DNA of 32,000 nucleotides from Halogeometricum borinquense DSM 11551 (GCF_000172995.2 NC_014731.1:307011-339010), one strand, 5' to 3'. Shown: positions 15,823 through 31,600, numbered from the stretch's first letter. Numbers and translations are program-made. The notes: generated by a model from the sequence alone, not told the origin.

Positions 15823-16155
15823 ATGGCAAAGCGATTCGTTCGAGCCCGGCCGAAGCGCGATCAACTCCCGGACCTGCGGGAGCGACTCGAGAGCGGTGAG
15901 ATCGAAGCGATGGAGCCGTTCGGCCGTGCGATGACGAAGGCGTTAGAGAACGCGCGATTCGACCCGGCGAGTGGAGAGGCGATTTGGATCGAGGAGGATT
16001 ACTGCGTTCCACCACTCGCGATGGAACGGGCAGAAGTCCTTGACGACTACTTCACAGAGATCACGATCGTCGAGGAGGATGTCGACGAAGCCGCCGGGTG
16101 GCAACAGATAGACGACCTGCCGGGGTTGTGGGAGCAGATACTCGACCAAGCCTAA
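15823..16155 (+). CDS. acidic hypothetical protein
   Basis: MAKRFVRARPKRDQLPDLRERLESGEIEAMEPFG... has GC-rich, halophile-type acidic composition and no recognisable motif. Confidence 0.55.
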   Translation: MAKRFVRARPKRDQLPDLRERLESGEIEAMEPFGRAMTKALENARFDPASGEAIWIEEDYCVPPLAMERAEVLDDYFTEITIVEEDVDEAAGWQQIDDLPGLWEQILDQA

Positions 16156-16338
16156 CGATGGTCGGACTGAGGCGTTTGCTATTCCGTCGGCAGACTGCGT
16201 CTGGCGGGCACTCAGAACGCAGATCGGTCTGGTGACGCCCTGTAGGGCGGGGAGAATGTCGAATGCAGCACCGACAACCCGTGTCCAACCACCGGGATAA
16301 TTGAGGCATTATATGACACAGGCACGTTGGTCACAATA

Positions 16339-16820
16339 ATGAGAACCGTTGAGTCAGCTGATATCAACGATTCCCGCCCGCTCGAGAAACTTCGAGCGGT
16401 TCTACAGGAACACTCGGTACAGTGTGCACCCTCTTCGGTTCCCACGCCACCGGAACGACACATCCAACAAGTGATACCGACATTGCAGTAGAGCTTGAGA
16501 CGACCGACCGTGAGGACCCCGCGTACAACGACGCATTCTTCGGTCTCAGTGCGGATCTGAGCGATGCGCTCGGAACGGATGACGTATACCTCGTCGACAT
16601 CCACACACTCTCACCAAGCGTTGCTGCGTCGGTGTTCGAAGCGGGAGTTCTACGTATCGGCGACGTAGCTCATGCTGAAGACCTTCGTCAACGTGTGACC
16701 AATACAGACGCTCCAGACCAGTCCCCACGCGAACGTTTCGACACTGCACTTGCAAAGATTGATGACCATCTCGGTGGGTCTGGCGTCACGGCAACAGATG
16801 GCAACGACCGTGAGCGATGA
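16339..16820 (+). pseudogene. minimal nucleotidyltransferase (MNT/Pol-beta superfamily), apparently frameshifted near 16415-16425
   Basis: From 16422 the frame reads CTLFGSHATGTTHPTSDTDIAVEL (GS-x9-D-x-D NTase motif). The expected N-terminal helix (MRTVESADINDSRPLEKLRAVLQEHSVQ) is encoded from ATG 16339 in a different frame. Confidence 0.6.
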
Positions 16821-16857
16821 CAGATTACATGTTGTTAGGGCGTCGTGTTAGGGGTAC

Positions 16858-17130
16858 ATGGAGCAGAATAGCAAGTATGGTGGGTGGGGAAAAATCTCAG
16901 ACATAGGTGTTGCTGTGTTTTGCTTGCTGGGAAGCGTTTTCATATTATTTATGTCGCACGCGCTAGCTAGTGCTGGAATCTTGACCATTGCAGGGATCGC
17001 TCTATTGCGACTTCGATCGCAGGATGTGCGTGACTGGACCGACGAGCACACAAGACTGTTCCAGTTGATTTTGGTCCTAATCGGTCTAGTTATGCTAGTT
17101 GATGTGTATCCTGTGGAAGCGCTTCCTTGA
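16858..17130 (+). CDS. small membrane protein (3 predicted TM helices)
   Basis: A 90-aa ORF in a short AT-richer stretch. Its hydrophobic segments are IGVAVFCLLGSVFILFM, ASAGILTIAGIALL and LFQLILVLIGLVMLV. Confidence 0.4.
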   Translation: MEQNSKYGGWGKISDIGVAVFCLLGSVFILFMSHALASAGILTIAGIALLRLRSQDVRDWTDEHTRLFQLILVLIGLVMLVDVYPVEALP

Positions 17131-17139
17131 GATTGTTAT

Positions 17140-17773
17140 CTACGAGTAGTGGATGAGTTGCTTGGTCCCCGAGGTCGCAAAGGAGACGGCGAGGACGACG
17201 AACGGCACGAGTAGCGCGCCGACGGCTCAGGAGAAGGCGACGACCGAAACCGCAGTGGCCGCCGACGCCAACGCGAGATAGACGCCGTAGGTGAGCGCCC
17301 GACGCCGAAGGGAACGGCGGATCGCATCGCCGCCGCCGTCGGAGAGGGAAAAGCGGGGTCTTCTCGGTCCCGCGGATGGTCGGCGTCCCCGCATCGACGG
17401 ACAGCTCGCCGTGGACCGTCAGCCGGGCCCCCTCGGGGACGGCCTTCGACAGGAAGTAGTCGTTCTTCAGGTCGATGTCCGGGTCATCGACGACGACGCC
17501 TCGGAGCCGTTCGAGCGGCAGTTCCGTCGAGTGATCAGCCAGCTGGACGTACGGCGAATTCCTGAGGTAGACGTGCCCGTCCGGCTCGGGGGGAAGCCGA
17601 CCGGCCGTACCGCCGCCAGCCGGTCGGCGTCGTGGACGTCTCGCAGCCACCCCGGGTCGACCCGGAGCTTCCCGTTCTCGGTCGCGACGGTGAACGATCC
17701 GAACTCGACGCCGGAGGCGAACCGCACGACCGTCGCTCGAAAGGTTTCGGCCAGCTCTTCTCCGTTGGCTCAT
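17140..17773 (-). pseudogene. decayed gene for a membrane-anchored protein (at least 2 frameshifts and an in-frame TGA)
   Basis: Protein-like translation is only obtained by frame hopping. The segments are (M/V)RFASGVEFGSFTVATENGKLRVDPGWLRDVHDADRLAAV, then EPDGHVYLRNSPYVQLADHSTELPLERLRGVVVDDPDIDLKNDYFLSKAVPEGARLTVHGELSVDAGTPTIRGTEKTP, then SLSDGGGDAIRRSLRRRALTYGVYLALASAATAVSVVAFS*AVGALLVPFVVLAVSFATSGTKQLIHYS*. The first shift is at a G6 run (17588-17593) and the TGA is at 17227-17229. Confidence 0.6.
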
Positions 17774-18306
17774 TTCGTAGATGAGTTATTGACCGCAGTT
17801 GTACCGTTCACCGTAGTTGAGTTGGTCAATAAATTCCGTTGGACAGTAGACCTGCAGTTCCACGTCTCACAGATCTAAGTACGGTCTGCTGGAGTGATTG
17901 AGATTATTCGAGGGGGCAGAAAAGATTTCCAACGAACTTCCTTGTTCCTACAGATTGCAGATGAGAGAATGGAACTGATGTACGAGTCCACTCTATTAGA
18001 AAAATATTATCCATACTATTTTGCATATTTTTAAGTAATATCATCGATCCGACGAGGGTCGTGAAGAATACGATAACAACAACAGCTCTTCAGAGAGTCC
18101 TTGGCTCAGCATTTCCTCCAATAGCAACGCCAGCGAGCATAGCTACAATCAATGCAGTAAATAATTCAATAGAACTGAAATAATAACGGTCTCACATTCC
18201 TATTTCCCTGATTCGCGATTGTGTCGAGTCTATCTCTCTGGGATGGATTCGCGGTAGTCTGTCATTTCTAAAATGTATGATCTGCTCCAGTATTGTGGTA
18301 ATCTAC

Positions 18307-18720
18307 AGTTGGAAAGCGGCAGGTGTAGGCAGTAGTGCGTTCTCATATGCATTCTTAGTTATTTCACAGTACCCGAGTACTATTTAATATTAAAATAGTG
18401 TATCTACTGCTATAGTTCTTCTATATAGTAGTGTACATCGTAGATATACGAACAATCTGGCGATTGATTAGCGTCGGATTCAAAAATGTCGTGAAGTGTG
18501 GGTGGTCGAAGCGAAATTTGTCACCGATACCGTGTTTATTCTCCAATGTAGTTCTCCTGGAGACCTCCCGTCCGTCGTGTTCTGGGCTTGTGGCGTGCCA
18601 GCGAGTAAAATCGAGCAATCCGAATCGTGGGTACGTAGACGTTAATCATGTCATATGTTCTATCATTACAATATTATTCTTGTAAGGCCGGAATATGCCA
18701 GCCTCCATTCAGAATTCCAG
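18307..18720. repeat. left arm of a long imperfect inverted repeat (partner 23517-23919)
   Basis: By-eye alignment to the reverse complement of 23517-23919. Identical blocks include 18698-18720 (23/23), 18512-18535 (24/24) and 18571-18604 (33/34), plus gtaggcagtagtgcgttc and atttaatattaaaata. Weak similarity continues to about 18275 and about 18750. Confidence 0.85.
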
Positions 18721-18796
18721 TCGAACTGGAATCTTCTTCTGATCGCTTCGTACAGACCAATATCGAACGAAAACAAAAATAAAAAATTCGCGGCTG

Positions 18797-18833
18797 TAGC
18801 TGACAGGCAGTAATTGTTATATTTCGTCAGCTA
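18797..18833. promoter_or_regulatory. candidate operator: 8-bp perfect inverted repeat bracketing a TATA-like element upstream of the wHTH regulator
   Basis: TAGCTGAC (18797-18804) and GTCAGCTA (18826-18833) are separated by 21 nt containing tgttatattt. The site lies 25-60 nt upstream of the regulator start at 18858. Confidence 0.35.
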
Positions 18834-18857
18834 AGACAAGTGGCCGCAAGAGAAAAT

Positions 18858-19625
18858 ATGGAGACAACAATCCGAAAGCGCCATGACATCCTAGAGGAAC
18901 TCGTCGATAGCTCGCAGTCAAAGCCAGATTTGGTCTCTCAGATGGACCTTTCGAGGTCAACAATCGACCGAGGAGTGAACGAGTTGCTTGAGCACGACTG
19001 CATAACGAGGACTGGTTCGACCTACGAAGCCACGGAAACCGGTCGGTTAGCCATCAGAGAATACGAGCGGTACCTCCGGTTTGTAGAAACCATAAAAGCA
19101 TCACCGAAAATACTCAACGAAGTTCCGACGAATACGTTTGACACCGTTTTCTTACGAGATGCAGATTTCGATCTCGTTGACGACCAGCAACCGTGGGCGG
19201 TGCTCGAGAAGAGTACAGAACTTATGAAAAACGCGAAATCTCTGAAAGGCACGGTCCCCGTCATTTTCCAGCGGCATTTTGCTGACTTGACTGACTCCTT
19301 TGACACTGGCAAGGAAGTGGAACTAATCTGGGACAACTCCCTGTATCACTCGCTGAGTGAGGAAATGCAAGAGATGATAGCTACTTTTCAGGAGTACGAC
19401 CAAGCTACAATGTACCGAACTGATTTAACAGATTCATACGCAATCTGGATACTGGACTCTCCGGAAGGAAATCACGCTAGTATCGCGGTCTTCACGAATG
19501 GCGGAATTCGTGGAATCATCCGCAATGATACTTGTGCCGCGGTTGATTGGGCGCTGTCTCAATACGAACAGCGGAAAGAAAGTGCGGTAAGTATCACGTC
19601 GAGACACACCCACAACTGTAACTGA
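18858..19625 (+). CDS. winged-helix transcriptional regulator (HTH plus DUF1724/FilR1-like C-terminal domain)
   Basis: The N-terminal wHTH is RHDILEELVDSSQSKPDLVSQMDLSRSTIDRGVNELLEHDCITRTGSTYEATETGRLA. The C-terminal part (...YAIWILDSPEGNHASIAVFTNGGIRGIIRND) fits the haloarchaeal/methanogen DUF1724 regulator architecture. An alternative GTG start lies at 18840. Confidence 0.75.
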   Translation: METTIRKRHDILEELVDSSQSKPDLVSQMDLSRSTIDRGVNELLEHDCITRTGSTYEATETGRLAIREYERYLRFVETIKASPKILNEVPTNTFDTVFLRDADFDLVDDQQPWAVLEKSTELMKNAKSLKGTVPVIFQRHFADLTDSFDTGKEVELIWDNSLYHSLSEEMQEMIATFQEYDQATMYRTDLTDSYAIWILDSPEGNHASIAVFTNGGIRGIIRNDTCAAVDWALSQYEQRKESAVSITSRHTHNCN

Positions 19626-19629
19626 AAGA

Positions 19630-20121
19630 CTACTTAGAATTCGCGGTCGTTTGGTCTTTCGGCACTATGTAGTCGTCCACCATTGTTATCTCCCCGTTGG
19701 CCTGTTGGTGCCGCACGAGAATGAAGGTGTCACTGTCAGGAACCCACTCGAACTGAAGCACCAGGAGATACCGGTACAGAGAACGGTTTTGTTGAGCAGA
19801 TTCGACGTCTGCTTCCAGTCGGACATCGATGGTAGTGCGAGCCTCATTATTTACCGTAGGCACGTGCGCATAGAGATCGGTAAGTTTTCCGCTGGAGACA
19901 AAGTTACCCGTGATAACGAGTTCTGCTTCGTTTCGTGAGTAGAGTATCTGTGCTGTGTGGTCAGTGTCCGCCGTTTGGTTCTTTCTCCAAGTGACCTCGC
20001 GTGATTCAAGATTGATTGACCGCTCATTCGGGTTCTCGTCAAGTACTGTACATCCCGCAAGCGTTGTTAGTAGTACAGTGCCAACCGTACGCCGACTGAG
20101 AACGTGATCTCGCTCACTCAT
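19630..20121 (-). CDS. Tat-type lipoprotein, function unknown
   Basis: MSERDHVLSRRTVGTVLLTTLAGC has a twin-arginine followed by a lipobox (LAGC). The start was moved from the ORF-track 20223 to the ATG at 20121. Confidence 0.7.
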   Translation of the reverse strand: MSERDHVLSRRTVGTVLLTTLAGCTVLDENPNERSINLESREVTWRKNQTADTDHTAQILYSRNEAELVITGNFVSSGKLTDLYAHVPTVNNEARTTIDVRLEADVESAQQNRSLYRYLLVLQFEWVPDSDTFILVRHQQANGEITMVDDYIVPKDQTTANSK

Positions 20122-20311
20122 ATCTACGGTTTTGCATGTCATGGGGGATTTATCTTTTCTTTCAGGGTTAGTGATGTGCCTCACTCTCTGTGGGAATGAC
20201 CACCTGCTGACAAACTCTCTCAAAGGATACCTAAAAGTATAACAAGATGAAGATTCAGTCAGGAATTAAAATAAAGAAATCAGCAAAATCATGATGAAAG
20301 TGTCGTATACA

Positions 20312-21376
20312 ATGTCACGAGACAGCGAAAGCGACTTGGCAAAAAATGGCACAGGAGTGACTCGACGAGGCGCGCTGAAAGGCCTCGGTGGAGTAGTAGT
20401 TGGTAGTGCCGCACTTGGGTCGAGTGCAAGCACTGGTGCTGTAGCATACGAAACTGACCCGAACGCAGATTCTAACAAATGCGGACCCAGACCGAGCCCA
20501 TGGAAAGATCATGGTGAATATGATACGCAGTTCCCATCCGGAACTACCCATCACGTATGTTCAGTCCTAGATCTCACTCACTCCCATTACGAACCCAAAG
20601 ACGAAAACCAAAATATAGACGACTACTGGATACACGAGTTTCAATTTAGTAGTCAGGTCAGTGCAGTGGAGACCGAGTCAGGGGATCCCACCGACAAGCT
20701 CCGGTCTCAAGGAGTTCGGATCAAGAATAACAACACAACGAAAGTCCCAGTTCGTGCAGCGAAAGGCGAGCAAAACAACGCCCTAGCACCTCAGTCCAAC
20801 AATCCAGACAATGTCGAGGACTTTAATGGTGCAGTTATCAGCGCAGCCGGTCTTGCAATCACGCTTGCAGAAAAGACTCAGGCGGCGCTCGTACTGTCTG
20901 GTGCCCAACTTGCGAACTCGCTTGGACAGATAGCGTACGACAAAAAGACTCCCGATGACTCCGCGTCATTCATCTGGGAAGGCGGATACAGTGGAATTGA
21001 GAGGGGTGCCCATCAGGTTGTTTTCAGCGTCGCCAACTATCTAACGTCCTCATCTGACACACCGCCCGTCCAGATCAGTGCGCACGCAGGTCAAGCCTAT
21101 ACTGGTTGGGATCTCAAATTCTCCAAGTGCGACGTCTCAACATCTGGAAAAGATGGGTCCTCCAGTGAGGCGCAGGGACCGATGGGAGATCCGCGGAAGA
21201 TGTCTAAAGCAGAAAAAGAGGAATTCGGGATCAAGGAGGTTCAGCGATCACAACTTGCTAAGGAGGTTGGAGAACACCGTATACAAACTGAGAATGAACG
21301 GGTCTACGTCGCAGAAGACCCGCCAATCTCTGCTACTCCGATGAGTCGGGAGGAAAGTAAAAAACTCTGGGAGTAG
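20312..21376 (+). CDS. Tat-secreted protein, function unknown
   Basis: MSRDSESDLAKNGTGVTRRGALKGLGGVVVGSAALGSSASTGAVA matches the Tat consensus (T-R-R-x-x-L-K). No catalytic motif was recognised. It is transcribed divergently from the lipoprotein gene. Confidence 0.75.
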   Translation: MSRDSESDLAKNGTGVTRRGALKGLGGVVVGSAALGSSASTGAVAYETDPNADSNKCGPRPSPWKDHGEYDTQFPSGTTHHVCSVLDLTHSHYEPKDENQNIDDYWIHEFQFSSQVSAVETESGDPTDKLRSQGVRIKNNNTTKVPVRAAKGEQNNALAPQSNNPDNVEDFNGAVISAAGLAITLAEKTQAALVLSGAQLANSLGQIAYDKKTPDDSASFIWEGGYSGIERGAHQVVFSVANYLTSSSDTPPVQISAHAGQAYTGWDLKFSKCDVSTSGKDGSSSEAQGPMGDPRKMSKAEKEEFGIKEVQRSQLAKEVGEHRIQTENERVYVAEDPPISATPMSREESKKLWE

Positions 21377-21379
21377 GAA

Positions 21380-21740
21380 GGGTGTCAAGGTTGGCTGATG
21401 GCATTATGGTACGCGGCGAAGGCTTTGGCCCAGCGGTCGACTGATTTCTAGGAGCTATTGTGGGGAACTGGCTGTGAACCGCCCCGGGGTCAAGCCCCGA
21501 GGCACTCGCCTTGTTTTCTCTGTAGATCGACTTGATGAACCCAGTTGTGAACGGCGACCTCGCTCCGATCGATCCTAAACCTTCCGAGATACTTACTTAC
21601 CTCACGCAGCGACATGCCGGCCAAGTGACTGCGGATCCCTATTTCAATCGCCCAGCGCGGCGTTTGATCTCGCTCCACAAACGACAAGTCGATCTACATG
21701 ATTCGTTCGCTGAGGCGTTCGATTTCGGTCATAGACACTC
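21380..21740 (-). mobile_element. internally deleted IS6-family (ISH-type) element remnant
   Basis: The transposase N-terminus (21490-21687) reads MSFVERDQTPRWAIEIGIRSHLAGMSLREVSKYLGRFRIDRSEVAVHNWVHQVDLQ. A C-terminal tail in another frame (about 21386-21445) reads KSVDRWAKAFAAYHNAISQP*. The catalytic core is missing. Putative ends GGGTGTCAAGG (21380) and inverted GAGTGTCTAT (21740) are only partly complementary, so the boundaries are approximate. Confidence 0.5.
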
Positions 21741-21856
21741 TGAAGTGAGCGCCTCATCCTCTAACTTAACCCGAGCGAGCGGTTGTGAAGCAGGTTTCAG
21801 GTGGGTGATGGCCGCCGGAGTAGTTTCAACGAGTGAGTTGATGGCTCCTAGCGAGT

Positions 21857-22600
21857 TTAGTCTTGCGCGAGTGCGGCTTGTAGTTCGTCGTCGTCAGAGA
21901 GACCTTCGAGATCTCCGGTTTGGAGCCGCCAAAGGTCTGTATAGAGTCCATCTTGGGTGACGAGGGACTCGTGCGTTCCTTCCTCTTTGAGCTCTCCTTT
22001 TTCGATAGTAAGGATGTGATCGGCAAATCGGACTGTAGAGATGTTATGCGCGACGACGAACGTCGTGCGGTTCGCGGTAACCTCTCGGAGTGATTGCTGA
22101 ATGAGGACCTTCGTTCGATTATCAACGTCGCTGGTTGCCTCGTCGAGAATCATGATTTCGGGGTCGCCGACGACTGCGCGAGCGAGCGCGATGCGTTGCC
22201 GTTGGCCACCCGAAATCCGGTTGCCGCCTTCACCGACGTCGGTCTCGTATCCGTCGTCGAGGTCCTCGATGAACTCGTGTGCTTTTGCTTGTTTGGCGGC
22301 TTCGACAATTTTGTCTGTGGTTGTGTCTGGGGCTCCGTAGCTGATGTTCTCGGCGACGGTTCCAGCGAAGAGGTACGGGTCCTGACTGACATAGCCGATA
22401 GCAGACCGGTAACTGTGTTTCGAAAACTCGCGGATATCGGTGTCGTCGACGGTGATCGTTCCGCTGGTGGGGTCGTAGAAGCGGAAAAGGAGCTTGAGGA
22501 TTGTTGATTTCCCGGAGCCAGTCGGGCCGACGATGCCAACGGTGTCGCCGGACTCAGCATGGAAGCTGAGATTATTGATGGCTGGTTCGTCGATTGATAC
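21857..22600 (-). pseudogene. 5'-truncated ABC exporter: nucleotide-binding domain only
   Basis: The continuous frame reads VSIDEPAINNLSFHAESGDTVGIVGPTGSGKSTILKLLFRFYDP...GYVSQDPYLFAGTVAENISYGA...ISGGQRQRIALARAVVGDPEIMILDEATSDVD...VVAHNISTV. Walker A, Q-loop, signature, Walker B and H-loop are all present. There is no transmembrane domain and no start codon upstream of 22600. Confidence 0.8.
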
Positions 22601-23040
22601 CCGCCTGCGCCTGAAGACGCAGGAAGATGGCCATGTCTCACTCCGTGCGACGACGGGCGAGGTGCGTCCATCCAGCGATGATGGCTATAGCGACTACGAG
22701 GAATCCCCATGTGAAATGAGAACTGAAAGTACCTCGACGATACCAAACTTAACGCGCGTCGGAAAATCTCTCATACGAATTGCTTCGATAGCGGACATAC
22801 ATTAATTCGGCTCTATTGAAATTCTCAGCCGCTGATAATTTTCTGGGGCCGTGCTGAATACAGGGCGTGAGTCGGTCGCTGACAGGTGAATATCACTGTA
22901 CTCGGTGAAGATCGAACGATTCGGACACCTCCATGGAGCCAATGGCTGCTCAGCTAATTCGTGGATATTATTTGGATTGTTGTATGTGACGATAATATAT
23001 AATGTAACTATTTTTATTGTCGGGCTAGAGACTAAACGCA

Positions 23041-23290
23041 ATGTCGGCCGAAAACACAGGAGGAACTGTCGAACGGAGGAGCCTTTGGAGAATTTTGAAA
23101 AAGTACGGCGCCGATTATAAATGATATTTCATTGTAGGAGTCATCACAACCGCATTGACAAATCTCATTGGCCATGCTGCTCCGTTAGTGCTAGGTTCTG
23201 CAATCAATTCGATCTTCACCGATAGTGCTCCGCTGAACATTCCATTCCTTCCTGCGGGCTTGGTACCTACCGTAGAAACCAGCGGAGAAA
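23041..23290 (+). pseudogene. ABC exporter N-terminal (transmembrane domain) fragment with in-frame TGA
   Basis: MSAENTGGTVERRSLWRILKKYGADYK*YFIVGVITTALTNLIGHAAPLVLGSAINSIFTD... The TGA at 23122-23124 sits where Trp is expected. Protein-like sequence is lost after about 23280. Confidence 0.5.
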
Positions 23291-23516
23291 TCAGGATAGC
23301 AAATGAACATCACCACCAGCCCTACGACCTACGGATACATCAAAGTCTCTGCCCAAGAAGAAGACCATGACAGCGTCTGAGAGTACTTCCTTTCCGACAT
23401 CACCGAGAGTCAGACTGAGTCTGTCTCCCACGACGAGGAATTCAAAAACGACAAGGTGACAGTCTCGATCACGATGGAGAACGTCGCCCTCTGCGACCGG
23501 ACAAATTCTAATTCGG

Positions 23517-23919
23517 CTGGAATTCTGAATGGAGGCTGGTAGATTCCACCCTTACAAAAATGCTATTGTAATGGTGTAATAGATAACACGATTGACGTCC
23601 ACGTATCCATAATCTGGAGTGATCAATTACCCTCGCTGGTACGCCACAAGCCCAGAACACGACGGTCGGGTCTTAGGGGGAACTACATTAGTGGACACAC
23701 GGTATCGGTGACAAATTTCGATTCGATTCTCCACTACATTTTTGAATTCTATCCTAACGAAGAGCAAGATTGCTCGTATATATCGGACTTATACCACCAT
23801 ACAGAGGCATTATAGTAGTAGATATGTTATTTTAATATTAAATATCATCCAAGTATGGTGGTACAACCAGAGAACACATCTAGGAACGCACTACTGCCTA
23901 CATCTGCCAATTCCCAACT
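23517..23919. repeat. right arm of the long imperfect inverted repeat (partner 18307-18720)
   Basis: Reverse complement aligns to 18307-18720. Identical blocks are 23517-23539, 23697-23720 and 23632-23665 (33/34), plus the AT palindrome tttaatattaaa at 23831-23842. Confidence 0.85.
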
Positions 23920-23966
23920 CTTGCTGATTGGATTGGTGGGAGCCATAGTGATTCGGGTGACTGGCG

Positions 23967-24253
23967 TATGATTCCATTATACGAAGGAATATATCTTGAA
24001 GAGGGTGAGCGTGGTGAGATAGAATTTTTTCAGAGACGGTGAATCAACCGAGACCAACGATTTCCCGCGGAGATTTGAGGATCCCAAAAAGAACGCTATT
24101 GTCCAATATCTCTCAACCACTGAACCGACAGAAAGTGGGCGAGAGCGACGAGCAATGGTCTTTGCCCCAAAAAGAGATAGGACCGAAGAAATTGCTGAAA
24201 TGCTTGCTGACCATATTAGAGATGACTGGTCTTCTACGGAGTGGTTTGCGTGA
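23967..24253 (+). pseudogene. gene remnant with helicase-C-terminal-like segment, frameshifted at a T6 run
   Basis: MIPLYEGIYLEEGERGEIEFF is followed, in the next frame, by RDGESTETNDFPRRFEDPKKNAIVQYLSTTEPTESGRERRAMVFAPKRDRTEEIAEMLADHIRDDWSSTEWFA*. The two frames join if one T of the 24025-24030 run is removed. RAMVFAPKRDRTEEIAEML resembles the start of a helicase RecA2 domain. Confidence 0.3.
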
Positions 24254-24313
24254 GTCTCGCGCTCTCGAAGAGTCGAGAGACACCGTTGAAGCAACCGTAC
24301 GGAATCTCCACGA

Positions 24314-24871
24314 ATGCACTTCCTGCCGAAATATCTAGGAGATGCCGTCGTCGTGACTGATCCCGAACCCATCCATAAGGGTAGCATCGAGATCACGGCA
24401 CTTAGAAAACTCGTGTACCGGCTCGCTCCAGCAGACCGCGAGTACGATCACGTTGCTGAAGCTGCGTCTGCCGTCGTTGAACGATTCCAGAGCCTCGAAG
24501 AGGAAAGTGAGCAGCTCAGGGATAGACTCGACAAACTTGGCGACATTGGTGAACGGAAGACATCGAAAGAGGAGAAGATAGCGGCTATCGTCACCTTCGC
24601 AGCCCGAAAGAAAGGGGAGAAACCCGCTATCACGGTCAAGCCAAAGACGATCAAAGGCCTAATCGATTTCTCTCGTCGCTATGCCTACGATTTAGTTGAC
24701 GATATGCACGATGAGTATGAGTGGGCACACGACCCGACACAAGTCGATCAGTACGGGATGCTAGAAAAAGATACCTCGCAGAAGGGCATTCTCATCGACT
24801 TCGACGGAGTTCACGGAGACCCCGTACCTGTGAACAAGTTCACCACTGGAACAGCCGAACAGGGCCGCTGA
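24314..24871 (+). CDS. acidic hypothetical protein (possibly the tail of the degraded upstream gene)
   Basis: 185-aa ORF with halophile-like composition and a coiled-coil-like stretch (VERFQSLEEESEQLRDRLDKLGD). It is in the same frame as the 24023-24253 remnant and separated from it by two TGA codons (24251, 24287). Confidence 0.5.
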   Translation: MHFLPKYLGDAVVVTDPEPIHKGSIEITALRKLVYRLAPADREYDHVAEAASAVVERFQSLEEESEQLRDRLDKLGDIGERKTSKEEKIAAIVTFAARKKGEKPAITVKPKTIKGLIDFSRRYAYDLVDDMHDEYEWAHDPTQVDQYGMLEKDTSQKGILIDFDGVHGDPVPVNKFTTGTAEQGR

Positions 24872-25365
24872 CTGATGGTACCGTTACGAGACAAACCTCC
24901 GCCGCGTAAGCCAAGTTTAGAATTCGTGAGGCAGGTTGTGGAAGGAAGGAAGTGTTAGTGGTAGGTAGCTCAGCGGAAGCGCAGCAGAGCGTCCCAAATT
25001 GACCCCCTCAGCGCTGCTCACCCACGTGGTGAACACGTTCACATGAATGATCACAGCAAGATACAGAAATCGTAGCACTTCCCAGGTTCCAAACTAGCGC
25101 CGAGAGCTACGAAATCTTCCTGCTCCGGCATGGTATCTGGCGATAGACCGAGGTAAACGTGGTAAGCCACTTCTTGAGCAGGCTTGGCGTCGAGACATAA
25201 TATATCAGTTAGATAGGGAAGACTGCTGAGGTCTGCACATTCTGTTGCTTGGGGAAACGATACAAGCTATGAAACAATACTCATATGAGTAAGAACCCTG
25301 CAGGTCAAATTCAGCTTTATTATCCCTGATAGGGGAATCGCACTACGATTGTGTCTTGCTTATAT

Positions 25366-25596
25366 ATGGAGGCGCTTGCGTTCGCAAGCGTCTCCGCGAT
25401 TCTCATCGAGATTACGAGGGCGAACGGCTCCGAGGTGCGCCCCATGTCCGCTCTGAAGGAGCTGGGGACAGATACACCAGATGACGTTGTCGACCAAATC
25501 CGGCTGGACACCATCGACAACATTGGTTCATTTTTTAGAAACTCGAACTCGTCGGCGGGCTCTGTGCAGAGCGTTCCGTCACGTTTCGATCCGTAG
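25366..25596 (+). CDS. small acidic hypothetical protein whose stop codon lies inside the orphan CRISPR repeat
   Basis: MEALAFASVSAILIEITRANGSEVRPMSALKELGTDTPDDVVDQIRLDTIDNIGSFF... The opposite-strand ORF (25320-25616) has non-halophilic composition. No family was recognised. Confidence 0.3.
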   Translation: MEALAFASVSAILIEITRANGSEVRPMSALKELGTDTPDDVVDQIRLDTIDNIGSFFRNSNSSAGSVQSVPSRFDP

Positions 25597-25617
25597 TGGG
25601 TTCTCGTCGGCTGCAAC
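25583..25617 (-). CRISPR. orphan degenerate CRISPR repeat (type A)
   Basis: gtttcgatccgtagtgggttctcgtcggctgcaac matches the 37-nt unit at 26506-26542 with 2 substitutions and 2 single-nt deletions. The minus-strand reading begins GTTGCAGCCGACGAG; the canonical ATTGAAAC end is degraded here (ATCGAAAC). Confidence 0.5.
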
Positions 25618-25692
25618 GCGAGCCGCCGTCGGCGTTAGAACACGGGAGGAAACACGCCAACAGTCCCGCTGACAGTAGCGAAGACGAGTAGC

Positions 25693-26172
25693 CTACGGTT
25701 TGTCTAAGAGAAGCTCATTCAGGCTGTCTGTTAGCGATTCAGCCTCACCAAGTGTAGACCGGGAACGGGGCTCAGATTCCTCAAAGACTGTGTCCTCCTG
25801 CATTACGGACTCGAGATCGACATCGAGATCGACATCTGCGTCAGTAGCATCTATTTCTTTCCAGTTGGGGCCGTCTTCCTCACGGGGGAGTTCAACCAAT
25901 TCGTCGTGGACTTTCTCGACGTGGTGGTCGTCGAGAAATAGAAAATCGGCACCGCTCGACTCTGCAAGCATCACCCGGCTTACGGTACCCCAGACTTCGT
26001 ATGTTCCAGGTTCGTCAGGGATCGCGATTTCATCATCGGCGCTCAGTTCGAGCGGGTGGTCTCGGTGCGGGCGGTCAACTGCGATCGTGTCCCCCTCATC
26101 CCGAAGGACACGAATACGGACGCTATCGCCCGATTCAGGGGCGGAACGTCCGTCGACGAGTTTGTGTTCCAT
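25693..26172 (-). CDS. very acidic hypothetical protein located between two direct CRISPR repeats
   Basis: 159-aa ORF rich in D and E (e.g. DATDADVDLDVDLESVMQEDTVFEESE). The overlapping plus-strand 259-aa ORF is Ser/Arg-rich, as expected for the antisense of an acidic gene. Confidence 0.65.
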   Translation of the reverse strand: MEHKLVDGRSAPESGDSVRIRVLRDEGDTIAVDRPHRDHPLELSADDEIAIPDEPGTYEVWGTVSRVMLAESSGADFLFLDDHHVEKVHDELVELPREEDGPNWKEIDATDADVDLDVDLESVMQEDTVFEESEPRSRSTLGEAESLTDSLNELLLDKP

Positions 26173-26505
26173 ACCTGAAAGAAGAGAGTACGTTCATTTG
26201 AATCTGTTCACCCGACCATCGTCCAGATGCACACGGTGGTTTTTATCGTCCCGGTGTAGTGAGACTATGAATACAGAGAAGACTGCTTCAGGAGGAGAAA
26301 CCGGTGGAGAATCCGGGAGACTATTCGGGCAGCTGCCAGCAGAGGTGAGCGGATGGGAGCAGCATCAGCGCACGCCGGCTGACAGTCTCTTCAAGTATTG
26401 GAAGAAGGGGTCGACGCACATCGTGGAGCCTACGAGCAGGTCGTCGCGAAGGAGTTGCGTGATGGCGACATCCGCGTGACGAAACGTACCTACGACCAGT
26501 TCAAC

Positions 26506-26595
26506 GTTTCAATCCCGTAGTGAGTTTCTCGTCGGCTGCAACTCCATGAGCTTTGCATAGATGGTAGCGGGGACGTGAGTTTCAATCCCGTAGTG
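26506..26595 (-). CRISPR. CRISPR remnant: full 37-nt repeat A, 36-nt spacer, 17-nt partial repeat A
   Basis: Repeat 26506-26542 read on the minus strand is GTTGCAGCCGACGAGAAACTCACTACGGGATTGAAAC, with the canonical ATTGAAAC 3' end. The spacer is 26543-26578. Positions 26579-26595 repeat the last 17 nt of the unit exactly. Confidence 0.6.
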
Positions 26596-26632
26596 GTCGC
26601 AGTGCGGAAGAAACCCAACACGGGATTGAAAC
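26596..26632 (+). CRISPR. single CRISPR repeat of a related variant (type B) in opposite orientation
   Basis: GTCGCAGTGCGGAAGAAACCCAACACGGGATTGAAAC is 37 nt and matches the minus-strand reading of repeat A at 27/37 positions. Shared parts include GT-GCAG at the 5' end, GAAAC in the middle and ACGGGATTGAAAC at the 3' end. Confidence 0.5.
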
Positions 26633-27005
26633 TCCGCAGAGGATCCCCGCGAATCTCTTCGCACTGGGGGTTACAGTTCAACGAACACATTAGGAAAGCA
26701 GCTAATCCGGATTGGGATTATTCGTTTCACGCCATCTGGGAGCCTCTCCCCCTGTACGAGGGCGCCTATCACCATTAGCGACCGGAACACGCTACCACTC
26801 AAAAATAGGCGTCTCAGAGGACGACGACACCAATCCAATACGACCCCTGCAAATCACTGCTACGAAGACCTGATTACTGAGAATTGTTGATAGCTCTGTG
26901 TCACTTAATCTCCGGAGCGTCCTATTTCGCGTCGGAGAAACGAAACACGTCAATGAGAAGTACGTGGGCGCTAAGGGCTGAGAAGAGAAGTAAGCGAGTC
27001 CGAAG

Positions 27006-28214
27006 CTAGATGTCGCCGTTGATGATATCTGCGACGCGCTGGCGGTCGAAGAGCTTCGTGTCGCTGGTCACGTCCCCGAAGACATCCGGATACAGCTGCT
27101 TCGCGGCCCGCTCTGTCAGGAAGAGGTTGTGAATTGGTCCCTGGCGGAGGTAGCCACCGCGATAAACGCGGTTATTCTGCACAGCCGTCAATTCGCTGCC
27201 AACCGGATGATCCTTCATATAGGCAAGGACCGTATCGCGGAACTCTGACGCCGACTTCTGTTCGTGACCCCTGATCAGGAGCACGTCGGGGTCGACTTCG
27301 AGGAGGTTCTCGTAGTCGAGTTCGCCGCGATTATCGGTACTAAGGTTCTCGATGTCGGTTCCGGCGAGAGCGTCCGCCACGCCGAGATCGTTCCACTGCT
27401 TCTTGCTCGTCCCCTTGTCGGTCAGGCGGTACGGCGAGAATGTGTCAGGCTCGTTGGTCCCCTCAAACGTGAGCATCACGTTCGGGCGCTCGCCGGACGG
27501 CGGCATTCGCGACTGGATTTCGGTGATGAACTCATCGTGGTACTGCTTGAACGCCTCGTACCGATCGCGCTCCTGGAACAACTCGGCAACCTTCTCGAAG
27601 GCCTCGTATAGCGTGTAGAACCGGTAGTCATGCCAGCTGTCGGATCGTCGGAAGATCATGTTCCCGAGGAACGGCCCGACCTGCTCGCTAATCTCCGCGA
27701 TGTCCTCGTCCCTCCAATCGAACCAGTTCCGCAGCATCCCGGTGTCGATAATGTGGACGTCACTATCCATTTCGTAGAACAGTTCCTTCGACATCCCGGC
27801 TTCGACCAAGTCGTTCTTTTCGATCCGGTCTTTGTCAACACTCACACCGGGTAACTCCTCGTAGACGTACGTGTAGTACTCGCCGGGCTGCCCAATGCCG
27901 ATCATGCTGTCCGCATGACCCAGTGCAACACCCATGTCGGCGTAGTCACCGCCGTAGGGCACCCACTGCTCCGGGATCGAGTCGAACGTGACCTCTCCCA
28001 TAGGAGCCATCGTTACCGAGTAGCTGACATCCTCGGTCGCCGTCTCCGACTCGGTGCCGGTCGCCGTCACCGTTGATGTTTCGGTCCCCCCGGTGTCGTC
28101 GGGCGCAAACAGACCAGCGCAGCCAGCGAGAGCGCTGCTGCCGATGACTGCACCGCCGTATTTCATGTAGTCACGTCGCGTCGGTGCCTTGTGCCCACCG
28201 CTATCTTCGGACAT
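27006..28214 (-). CDS. ABC transporter substrate-binding lipoprotein (iron-siderophore/cobalamin-type periplasmic binding protein)
   Basis: MSEDSGGHKAPTRRDYMKYGGAVIGSSALAGC has a Tat motif and a lipobox, followed by a Thr-rich linker. The length and conserved stretches (e.g. PDVLLIRG) fit class III SBPs. Start placed at the ATG at 28214. Confidence 0.8.
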   Translation of the reverse strand: MSEDSGGHKAPTRRDYMKYGGAVIGSSALAGCAGLFAPDDTGGTETSTVTATGTESETATEDVSYSVTMAPMGEVTFDSIPEQWVPYGGDYADMGVALGHADSMIGIGQPGEYYTYVYEELPGVSVDKDRIEKNDLVEAGMSKELFYEMDSDVHIIDTGMLRNWFDWRDEDIAEISEQVGPFLGNMIFRRSDSWHDYRFYTLYEAFEKVAELFQERDRYEAFKQYHDEFITEIQSRMPPSGERPNVMLTFEGTNEPDTFSPYRLTDKGTSKKQWNDLGVADALAGTDIENLSTDNRGELDYENLLEVDPDVLLIRGHEQKSASEFRDTVLAYMKDHPVGSELTAVQNNRVYRGGYLRQGPIHNLFLTERAAKQLYPDVFGDVTSDTKLFDRQRVADIINGDI

Positions 28215-28521
28215 ACGTTTTAGGCCCACCTAAAACGATATAGTTTCTTCGGTCTGTAGACAGTTATGCTCAATTAGCAGTAGTTGAAAACCCGGAGATT
28301 CTATTCAGCAACGCCCCCCGGTAATCAGTCGATATCTGAGGTACTCAACCTACCCTTGAGAACGTCGGTGAATATCTATCGAGATTCTGCCAATTGAATT
28401 GGACTGGGTTTCGCGGGAGTCTTTGTCCATATCGTCACGAAGATTCCACACACTACCCTATCGGTTCTTAGTTAAGTTCCGGAGGTACGACTTGTATTAA
28501 ATCGTTCGCTGATGTAGATGG

Positions 28522-28973
28522 TCACGATATCCTTCTCGACGGCCATTTCAAACCCGTCTTCCCATTCGCCGTTGTCTCAATAATTGTCAAAGTAGAGGGC
28601 CCAATATTCGCGTTCACTGTAACCCCATACTGGTATATTCTCCTCGTATCCAGTTCGCCAAAGCAAGTACTCACCGACAGATTTGCTTCGTCCTCCTGAA
28701 TGAGTTGGTAGAGGTCGTAGAGTGTGATAACCACTATCCGTTCGTGTTCTGCGATTGGTCATGGATCTTGCCCATTCCCAATTGTTGATCGGCCCGCTCG
28801 TTACCAGAGTACAATGTGGGAAGAAATCCGTCAAGGATGACTATGCCGTCCGTATCCATCTCACCGGAGTTCTTGTTGCCGGTGAGGTTATACACTAAAC
28901 CGAATTCATCGTCTAGACTGTCAAGATAGTCTAGAGCGTTATCTATCTGATCGACAGCCTGAGTCACTTTCAA
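28522..28973 (-). pseudogene. probable frameshifted gene remnant, function unknown
   Basis: Three overlapping minus-strand ORFs each carry a protein-like piece: MKVTQAVDQIDNALDYLDSLDDEFGLVYNLTGNKNSGEMDTDGIVILDGFLPTLYSG, VITLYDLYQLIQEDEANLSV and GEYLLWRTGYEENIPVWGYSEREYWALYFDNY*. Confidence 0.35.
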
Positions 28974-29638
28974 TGTAAGTGATGGCTTAACCTGCTTCCA
29001 CTGGCGTGTTACGATTACGGTCCTATTTTTGACAATGGATGCTGTTCACCAATGTCTGTTGGAGCCTGCGATAATTTTATGACAGATACACATCAATTAT
29101 TATGATATTATGGGTGGAGGAAGTGGCGGTTATCATCGGCGGGGTGGAGGAGGGTCGGATGGCAGTGTAGGGTGCCTCTAGGGAGAGCGTGGGGGATGTC
29201 GATGCGGATATCCGCACTCTGTCCCCGTGTAGTCGGTATTTACAACACTGGATATATGTGAGTAAAACAGACAATCCCGCCGACATCGAAAGCAAATGTC
29301 CTCGAAGTTCTTTGAGGAGGCCTGGACGATGCTCTGCGAGGTGTTCATCGCGTATTCGTTTCCGCACCTGAGAGACTACCTCATGACGACTGACTGTTGT
29401 AGTTGACCAGATCACTATGAGTGGATTCCAGCGCTCAGGCACGGAAGGAAATCAAACCTGGTAGGCACGAGAGATTGTTTCGGTGCGTGTTAGGTTTTCA
29501 GTCCCCTATAAAACCCGCTGGAAGGCTGTATTTCCATTCTCATATTCCCTCACAATAGTATTCAATTCCATTATGACTCCCACATCCTGAAATGTAACCC
29601 AACAAATTAATTACTGCCTACACTTACTTGACAATTGC

Positions 29639-31467: not shown

Positions 31468-31600
31468 ATGATCGCCTGCTACACTCGGGTCTCAACAGAG
31501 GATCAGAACCTCGACCGACAAATTTGCCACTCGAGACAACTCGTCACCGCAGGGAGTTATAGATCTGTCTGGCTGCCGACCTCTGCGATGGTCAGTGCCA
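31468..31600 (+). pseudogene. serine recombinase (resolvase/invertase) N-terminal remnant
   Basis: MIACYTRVSTEDQNLDRQ carries the catalytic-serine motif (Y-x-R-V-S-T-x-x-Q). Recognisable sequence is lost after ~20 codons, and the region overlaps the 3' end of the convergent membrane-protein gene. Confidence 0.5.

Follow-up and report, generated by a model that had tools for sequence, protein, structure and literature searches.

Inverted duplicates that undergo concerted evolution, such as the plastid inverted repeats, acquire tracts of identity through intramolecular non-reciprocal exchange. In haloarchaea, the inverted repeats of the Halobacterium plasmids pNRC100 and pNRC200 are described in PMC1447603 (citing Ng et al. 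1991) as 33-39 kb long, essentially identical and gene-bearing, and as demonstrably inverting. Homologous non-coding DNA is also known from putative mobile promoters, which are defined by very high identity (at least 46 of 50 bp) in front of genes that are not paralogous (PMC3575422), and haloarchaeal replication origins are recognised as an AT-rich stretch that is flanked by repeated origin recognition box (ORB) elements with a G-string and adjoins orc1/cdc6 (PMC3936714). Here, we analysed a 32,000-bp stretch of DNA (hereafter the window) from the 339,010-bp plasmid carried by Halogeometricum borinquense DSM 11551 (identical to AOHT01000017.1; proteins Hbor_35860-35890), in which two non-coding arms form a long imperfect inverted repeat around a 4.8-kb gene cassette. 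Unlike in plastid-type repeats under concerted evolution, conversion here is rare and confined to short tracts, and the copies stay 75% identical. Like the pNRC repeats, the arms are inverted duplicates on an insertion sequence (IS)-rich haloarchaeal megaplasmid that interact by homologous recombination, whereas they are ~0.42 kb long, 75% identical and non-coding, and conversion but not inversion was detected. The pNRC repeats and the putative mobile promoters are the nearest analogues, each a partial one. The explanation that we favour, with somewhat better than even confidence, is that a non-coding module restricted to this lineage was duplicated long ago, its copies now lie inverted, and they still undergo occasional gene conversion. 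The arms are not the termini of an element, and no new element class is needed.

Comparison of the window with itself by blastn revealed exactly one inverted pair, i.e., two arm copies in 32 kb, in which 18307-18732 matches 23505-23919, read as its reverse complement, with 75.4% identity in an alignment of 427 columns (E ~1e-79; 322 identities, 92 mismatches and 13 gap columns). The two arms and the longer unit to which the left one belongs, the latter delimited by comparison with the more distant strain assemblies CP048739.1 and JAXCMF01, are as follows.

18307-18732, plus strand: left arm, non-coding, GC ~0.43, stops in all frames, aligned to the right arm
23505-23919, minus strand: right arm, non-coding, 99.5% identical in strain RZHH (ELS19; GCA_004150395.1)
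18200-18778, plus strand: full left-type conserved non-coding unit, 579 bp, with sharp homology edges in CP048739 and JAXCMF

An earlier, sequence-only reading of this DNA had described arms about three-quarters identical over their whole length, and the similarity proved neither shorter nor weaker than had been judged by eye. Of the weaker extensions that it also described, the inner one is real for at most ~20 bp, homology fading within that distance beyond 18732 and 23505, and the outer one is unsupported, since the homology has its outer edges at 18307 and 23919, and 18200-18306 differs from the right flank at 52 mismatches in 92 columns. The enclosed segment is likewise real, with a length of 4772 bp by blast coordinates in place of the 4796 bp given before. 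Moreover, the longest identical runs between the arms (25, 23, 23, 19 and 17 nt) exceed chance at 75% identity (P ~0.001), bearing out the perfectly conserved blocks noted by eye.

The arms have a GC content of 0.39-0.44 within surroundings of 0.50-0.69 and contain stops in all six frames, their mismatches fall at 39/26/27 by codon phase, and transitions and transversions between them number 62 and 30, respectively. Six-frame translations of the gene-less stretches 17879-18857 and 22747-24313 matched no Pfam family at E<=1, so that the AT-rich, non-coding character proposed from the sequence alone held up; hidden coding in the arms was ruled out by the frames, codon periodicity, an all-versus-all blastp of open reading frames (ORFs) and the six-frame Pfam search. 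Also, a search of the arms against Rfam 15, at the gathering score and at E<=5, returned no family, nor was a tRNA found. Blastn of the arms (word size 11) against 72,556 plasmids and 50,697 phage records gave no match, and none of the plasmid matches to the surrounding 7.9 kb lay inside an arm. Exact scans of genome representatives, JGI metagenomes and IMG/VR viral contigs for conserved arm blocks (pattern queries: blocks A, D and F and the palindrome motif described below) found nothing, and the tolerant palindrome pattern gave two matches in these collections, both due to chance. In addition, searching 328 kb of related loci with a profile recovered no further copies of the unit, and a Haloarchaeobius locus that shares a substrate-binding protein with the window is without arm-like DNA. 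A duplication reaching into the flanking genes was rejected, because the outward 186-amino-acid (aa) and 185-aa genes are not paralogues and no remnant of a regulator was found next to the right arm. Orphan CRISPR (clustered regularly interspaced short palindromic repeats) leaders were also rejected, with no tandem or CRISPR array in the window and no cas domains in the scanned proteins.

Comparison with related strains, as the sequence-only reading had proposed, uncovered both a conserved and a displaced arrangement. Strain RZHH is 99.5% identical over 17283-29627 and carries both arms in the same order and orientation. CP048739.1 and JAXCMF01 each harbor a single left-type copy corresponding to window 18200-18778 (579 bp, 95.2% identity, sharp edges), which is inverted and lies ~7 kb away on the other side of RNase H-SfsA, with its inner edge (18778) joined directly to the interior of a truncated gene that is paralogous to one for a twin-arginine translocation (Tat) lipoprotein; among the cassette and right-flank proteins looked up, none had a cluster member of at least 90% identity from CP048739 or JAXCMF. 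On a metagenomic contig (L004), the regulator gene of the cassette is 88% identical, homology to the window begins at 18708, and the 268 bp further upstream are unrelated to the arm, whose body is absent. The solitary unit of CP048739/JAXCMF and the regulator without an arm body in L004 thus show that unit and regulator cassette can be separated. The points at which homology stops also vary by copy, being 18200 or 18307 on the outside and 18708, ~18732 or 18778 on the inside, and such variation argues for segmental duplication and rearrangement rather than transposition, since fixed termini are expected of a transposable element. As a separate observation, a strong hairpin (GCCACCATGTGCCTGATGACAGGCACATAGTGGC) occupies L004:95-130, upstream of the 88% regulator homologue at the place where the arm would be.

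The polymorphism between DSM 11551 and RZHH was then considered by region: differences number 10 in 3738 coding positions and 2 in 415 of the right arm, compared with 11 in 426 of the left arm, an excess over the ~1.1 expected (P ~4e-8). When the CP048739/JAXCMF alleles serve as outgroup, the RZHH left arm has seven changes of its own, four of which match the right-arm base, and at these four positions DSM 11551 and the outgroup alleles share the base not found in the right arm. The changes toward the paralogue state in the RZHH draft are therefore polarised, and they are clustered, all four lying within 16 bp; four such switches among seven changes have a probability of ~8e-4 (chance ~0.07 per change). 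Position 18660, inside the tract, is unconverted. The tract and the variable patch containing it are given below.

18648-18663, no strand: short gene-conversion tract, with the right-arm base at 18648, 18655, 18661 and 18663 in the RZHH left arm
18641-18707, no strand: hypervariable patch of the left unit, 11/67 differences between DSM 11551 and CP048739 and 8/67 between DSM 11551 and RZHH

We read 18648-18663 in RZHH, the single draft assembly from which it is known, as a short, patchy tract of right-to-left gene conversion. A conversion tract in one strain implies that the arms are still mutual substrates for homologous recombination, and short tracts of this kind can provide a non-selective explanation for part of the perfect blocks.

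Several conserved features lie within the unit, and their positions are as follows.

18381-18397, no strand: pure A/T, nearly palindromic block TATTTAATATTAAAATA, identical in both arms, with a change at 18387 in the CP048739/JAXCMF alleles
18398-18438, plus strand: hairpin directly after the A/T block, kept in 6/6 copies read toward the regulator
18512-18534, no strand: block D, 23 nt, identical in 6/6 sequences
18572-18596, no strand: block F, 25 nt, identical in 6/6 sequences
18715-18731, no strand: perfect palindrome TTCCAGT-CGA-ACTGGAA at the inner end of the unit, kept in all left-type alleles
23506-23522, no strand: right-arm counterpart of the palindrome, also at the inner end, degenerate by 3 mismatches

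No change was seen in blocks A, D, E, F and G across the six sequences, and the A/T block may be TATA-like. The hairpin has energies of -14.3, -11.5 and -8.9 kcal/mol when read toward the regulator and is weaker on the other strand. The palindrome is unique in the window and the loci examined, and its L004 copy has one mismatch; a role as a regulon operator was ruled out, because it is unique and absent upstream of a 56% homologue of the regulator.

The favoured explanation, an old inverted duplicate with occasional conversion, accounts for two homologous copies on one replicon that lack element-like ends, and for a module that occurs in one or two copies in the sequence examined, without fixed ends and with different and often truncated neighbours across strains. 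Paralogous copies of the left-type unit would have been left inverted by segmental duplication plus rearrangement in an IS-rich mosaic region of the 339-kb plasmid, and perfect blocks in a background of ~70% identity would have arisen from recurrent conversion of short stretches, whether or not binding sites were also under selection. Crossing over between the two arms would invert the 4.8-kb segment; at 75% identity it is expected to be rare, and none was seen. The module itself may be intergenic regulatory DNA, to which the A/T TATA-like palindrome, the hairpin and the terminal palindrome faintly point, rather than an RNA gene or a transposon. An old inversion or duplication of an intergenic or regulatory region had been among the explanations offered from the sequence alone, and the variable homology ends and the solitary, displaced units now favour it, whereas the suggestion of an unrecognised element class is not sustained by the behaviour of a low-copy segmental duplicate without fixed ends.

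A number of points weigh against this explanation. Six or seven further left-arm changes fit no known donor, and the inference of conversion is drawn from one draft assembly. The duplication event is not reconstructable because the arms have no flanking sequence in common beyond the homology, and, given the 25% divergence, the right copy could instead have arrived by transfer from another lineage. The copy number refers to the window and to the loci and collections compared. Three independent homology breakpoints fall within ~70 bp of the perfect palindrome, and their clustering hints at a specific site, not random breakage. Furthermore, DSM 11551 and CP048739 differ at 17/512 positions outside the variable patch, compared with 46/463 third codon positions of neighbouring genes, a contrast that is weak against SfsA alone (13/244), and this between-strain conservation of the unit suggests some function; we treat the unit as intergenic and possibly regulatory DNA.

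The main rival, which we consider unlikely, sees the unit as non-coding DNA that moves as a non-autonomous or portable module, resembling either a miniature inverted-repeat transposable element (MITE) or a putative mobile promoter, with the palindrome end as its joining site. It is a discrete unit found in three contexts and both orientations, twice abutting truncated genes; unit and regulator are separable, overlapping by only 71 bp that contain the palindrome; three breakpoints lie near the palindrome, and the size and non-coding nature would suit. Like MITEs, it measures a few hundred bp, is non-coding and AT-rich and lies in both orientations beside disrupted genes, but it differs from them in having variable ends (25-107 bp between copies), no related IS and no haloarchaeal-plasmid match. 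No terminal inverted repeat exists within 18200-18860, where the ends are complementary at ~5/7 nt, and no target-site duplication was found, as the flanks (...GGTAATCTAC before one arm and CTTGCTGATT after the other) are unrelated; an IS terminus at the arm edges was rejected because the small repeats D4 and I8 do not extend. Only one or two copies per strain and none in another genus were seen in the collections and loci searched, and the DSM 11551 cassette offers no partner transposase or recombinase. The concept of putative mobile promoters does cover homologous upstream DNA before unrelated genes (PMC3575422), and the unit shares with them homologous non-coding DNA beside unrelated genes in three differing contexts, whereas two of these three contexts have only gene fragments downstream, the probable core promoter of the regulator lies outside the unit, and promoter-like signals are limited to TATA-like AT blocks. 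A more specific form, in which the 0.45-0.58-kb unit would be a functional portable module (a regulatory cassette or small-RNA locus) that is repeatedly spliced beside new genes in Halogeometricum through the palindrome end as preferred recombination joint, seems decidedly unlikely to us; if true, it would constitute a transposase-independent route for moving archaeal regulatory DNA, and would have left its traces in the breakpoint cluster and in the left-arm hot spot of differences between strains. With composite transposons of the IS6/IS26 type, the locus shares two inverted repeats around a few kb of cargo and an IS6 remnant inside, yet its arms are 25% diverged, free of transposase (six-frame stops; no Pfam family at E<=1) and without similarity to the single internal IS6 fragment. 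It is highly improbable that the arms are decayed long terminal inverted repeats of an integrated element (a virus, casposon-like transposon or linear plasmid) that lost its interior genes. Inverted repeats of ~420 bp around a cassette on a plasmid rich in mobile elements, an interior that suffered an IS6 insertion and deletions, and a right arm starting exactly at the beginning of a helicase fragment are consistent with it, but the remainder of the helicase is not on the far side, and no polymerase, integrase, Cas1 or capsid gene was found between the arms. In addition, the phage and viral collections held nothing similar, and in other strains the left-type unit is solitary, cassette-free and extends 107 bp beyond the outer side of the repeat. 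The ends of a degenerate integrated element, one of the candidates of the sequence-only reading, are accordingly disfavoured, whereas its exclusion of IS terminal repeats, composite-transposon arms and viral inverted terminal repeats stands, as the arms showed the marks of none of them.

The remaining explanations assign a function to the arms. That each arm encodes a non-coding RNA (a small RNA or a long 5' leader), with the blocks as functional RNA segments, appears improbable. The hairpin 18398-18438 is kept in six of six copies by G.U-compatible and shifting changes in the regulator-ward orientation only, the sliding test of structure conservation gave a local signal in columns 31-150 on the same strand only (z = -3.6), and the left-arm fold has z = -2.8; against these stand the empty Rfam search, the right-arm fold (z = -1.3, with a different minimum free energy structure), and the columns outside 31-150, whose structure is less conserved than in column-shuffled controls on both strands. 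A small RNA on the opposite strand over blocks C-G was no better than shuffles (z = +1.1 and +0.5), so that this form and a whole-arm structured RNA were ruled out by the shuffle controls; of the paired cis-acting or RNA elements suggested earlier, one local hairpin region is left, and the remainder of the arm falls below the controls. A programmed inversion switch, flipping the 4.8-kb segment and altering expression of the regulator and the secreted proteins, has a very remote chance of being correct. The inverted sites bracket these genes, the arms recombine, as the conversion tract indicates, and the Halobacterium pNRC inverted repeats generate inversion isomers (PMC1447603). However, a single orientation occurs in all four assemblies (the window, the AOHT draft, the ERR481281 contigs and RZHH), a comparison at assembly level only, the right-arm palindrome is degenerate, and 75% identity is poor for efficient homologous exchange. 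No recombinase domain was detected in the cassette ORFs and no recombinase gene lies in or beside the DSM 11551 cassette, a resolvase gene being present only in RZHH, 7.6 kb away. Finally, the AT-rich composition, short palindromes and megaplasmid location would fit replication-origin or partition-type cis elements, an idea with a next to negligible probability, and a replication origin was ruled out, because neither repeated ORB-like motifs nor a G-string, neither an orc1/cdc6 or rep gene nearby nor a Cdc6-type domain in the window proteins, was found.

The cassette and its right border consist of the following genes and gene pieces, so that the winged helix-turn-helix (wHTH) regulator, two Tat proteins, IS6 remnant and two ATP-binding cassette (ABC) exporter fragments inventoried previously were each identified at their coordinates.

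18858-19625, plus strand: wHTH regulator Hbor_35890, HVO_A0261_N + FilR1_middle (PF25213, PF08350), from a domain search
19630-20121, minus strand: Tat lipoprotein, 163 aa (SRRT...LAGC)
20291-21376, plus strand: Tat-signal secreted protein (TRRGALKGLGG), in some annotations 236 aa from 20666
21473-21780, minus strand: IS6-family remnant, an IS end and the N-terminal part of the transposase gene
21857-22579, minus strand: ABC ATPase-domain gene without membrane domain
23041-23292, plus strand: fused ABC exporter, N-terminal membrane-domain fragment with an in-frame stop, opposite to the ATPase domain
23919-24239, plus strand: DEAD/DEAH helicase gene, internal fragment (aa 193-305 of 941), beginning at the outer edge of the right arm

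The TATA-like box of the regulator (18817-18822) lies outside the repeat. In the same interval, at 18800-18832, an inverted repeat GCTGAC...GTCAGC surrounds a TATA-like TTATAT just upstream of the regulator start and outside the arm repeat, and it is plausible as a candidate autoregulatory operator. The IS6 remnant, negative in Pfam, matches an annotated IS6 transposase at 85% (H83) and multi-copy ends at 96-98% (H88-H90). The ATPase domain and the membrane fragment of the exporter are ~460 bp apart on opposite strands, with the middle of the gene missing, which indicates a separate small inversion and deletion adjoining the right arm; in RZHH, a 1-bp difference at 21980 extends the ATPase ORF from 240 to 282 aa. 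No other part of the helicase gene is present, and none lies on the far side of the arms; an insertion into this gene was thus ruled out, as the fragment is internal only and on one side only. Other patches in the region are 81-97% identical to plasmids of other genera, including a 97% patch shared with a Haloferax plasmid. The helicase fragment, the IS6 remnant, the split and opposed ABC gene and the Haloferax-plasmid patch together mark the region as a mosaic of fragments.

Further differences were observed to the left of the unit. The 535-bp GC-rich stretch 17189-17723, part of a minus-strand gene of 186/227 aa, shares 96.7-96.8% identity with a gene for a hypothetical protein on the Haloferax mediterranei plasmid pHME132/pHM100, and this identity, far above that of the surrounding DNA, suggests recent transfer between genera. 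The homology of DSM 11551 with RZHH stops abruptly at 17283 (L018:8424), inside a minus-strand gene, and to the left of this point the RZHH sequence continues with an IS6 transposase gene and an HVO_A0261_N fragment of 93 aa, i.e., a second, truncated regulator of the same family. At 17968-18183 (plus strand), an ORF of 71 aa that stops 17 bp short of the unit is intact in RZHH and broken in DSM 11551 by a 1-bp deletion at 18027, and the opposite strand carries a membrane-protein-like frame broken by stops. In CP048739/JAXCMF, SfsA is directly followed by homologues of window 16979-17244 and 17491-17722 (window 15890-16979 versus L019:10843), and from this order the 110-aa, nucleotidyltransferase (Polbeta) and 90-aa genes of DSM 11551 were inserted or relocated; genes similar to the Polbeta and 186-aa ones are located on the far side of RNase H in these strains. 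Also after SfsA in CP048739/JAXCMF, alternating eCIS_core (PF13699) and DUF7958 genes, absent from the window, occupy L019:13041-18887.

To the right, 25811-25836 is a 12-bp tandem repeat (TCGAGATCGACA, 2.2 copies) with a 6-bp length difference between strains, and a 4-bp indel occurs at 26236. The gene at 27006-28214 encodes an Fe3+-hydroxamate-type substrate-binding protein, of which an at least 90% identical counterpart (86% at the DNA level) is encoded on the Haloarchaeobius amylolyticus chromosome, where the surroundings are unrelated and bacteriorhodopsin and bat genes adjoin it; this looks like a single-gene transfer between genera. At window position 31523, RZHH has an insertion of ~1.3 kb (L012:11885-13220) with a serine-recombinase gene (PF00239 Resolvase) that is absent from DSM 11551.

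We judge the inverted pair to be a real but ordinary lineage-restricted feature of Halogeometricum. It provides a worked negative, in which striking long imperfect inverted repeats prove to be a non-coding duplicate of low copy number, set in a scrambled part of a megaplasmid, and not a new class of mobile element. It also offers a small, clean haloarchaeal case in which inverted repeats of 75% identity have undergone ectopic gene conversion over a short tract, and perfectly conserved blocks in diverged repeats need not imply selection. If the cluster of breakpoints at the palindrome is site-specific, the locus would be informative about the reshuffling of regulatory DNA in plasmids of archaea.

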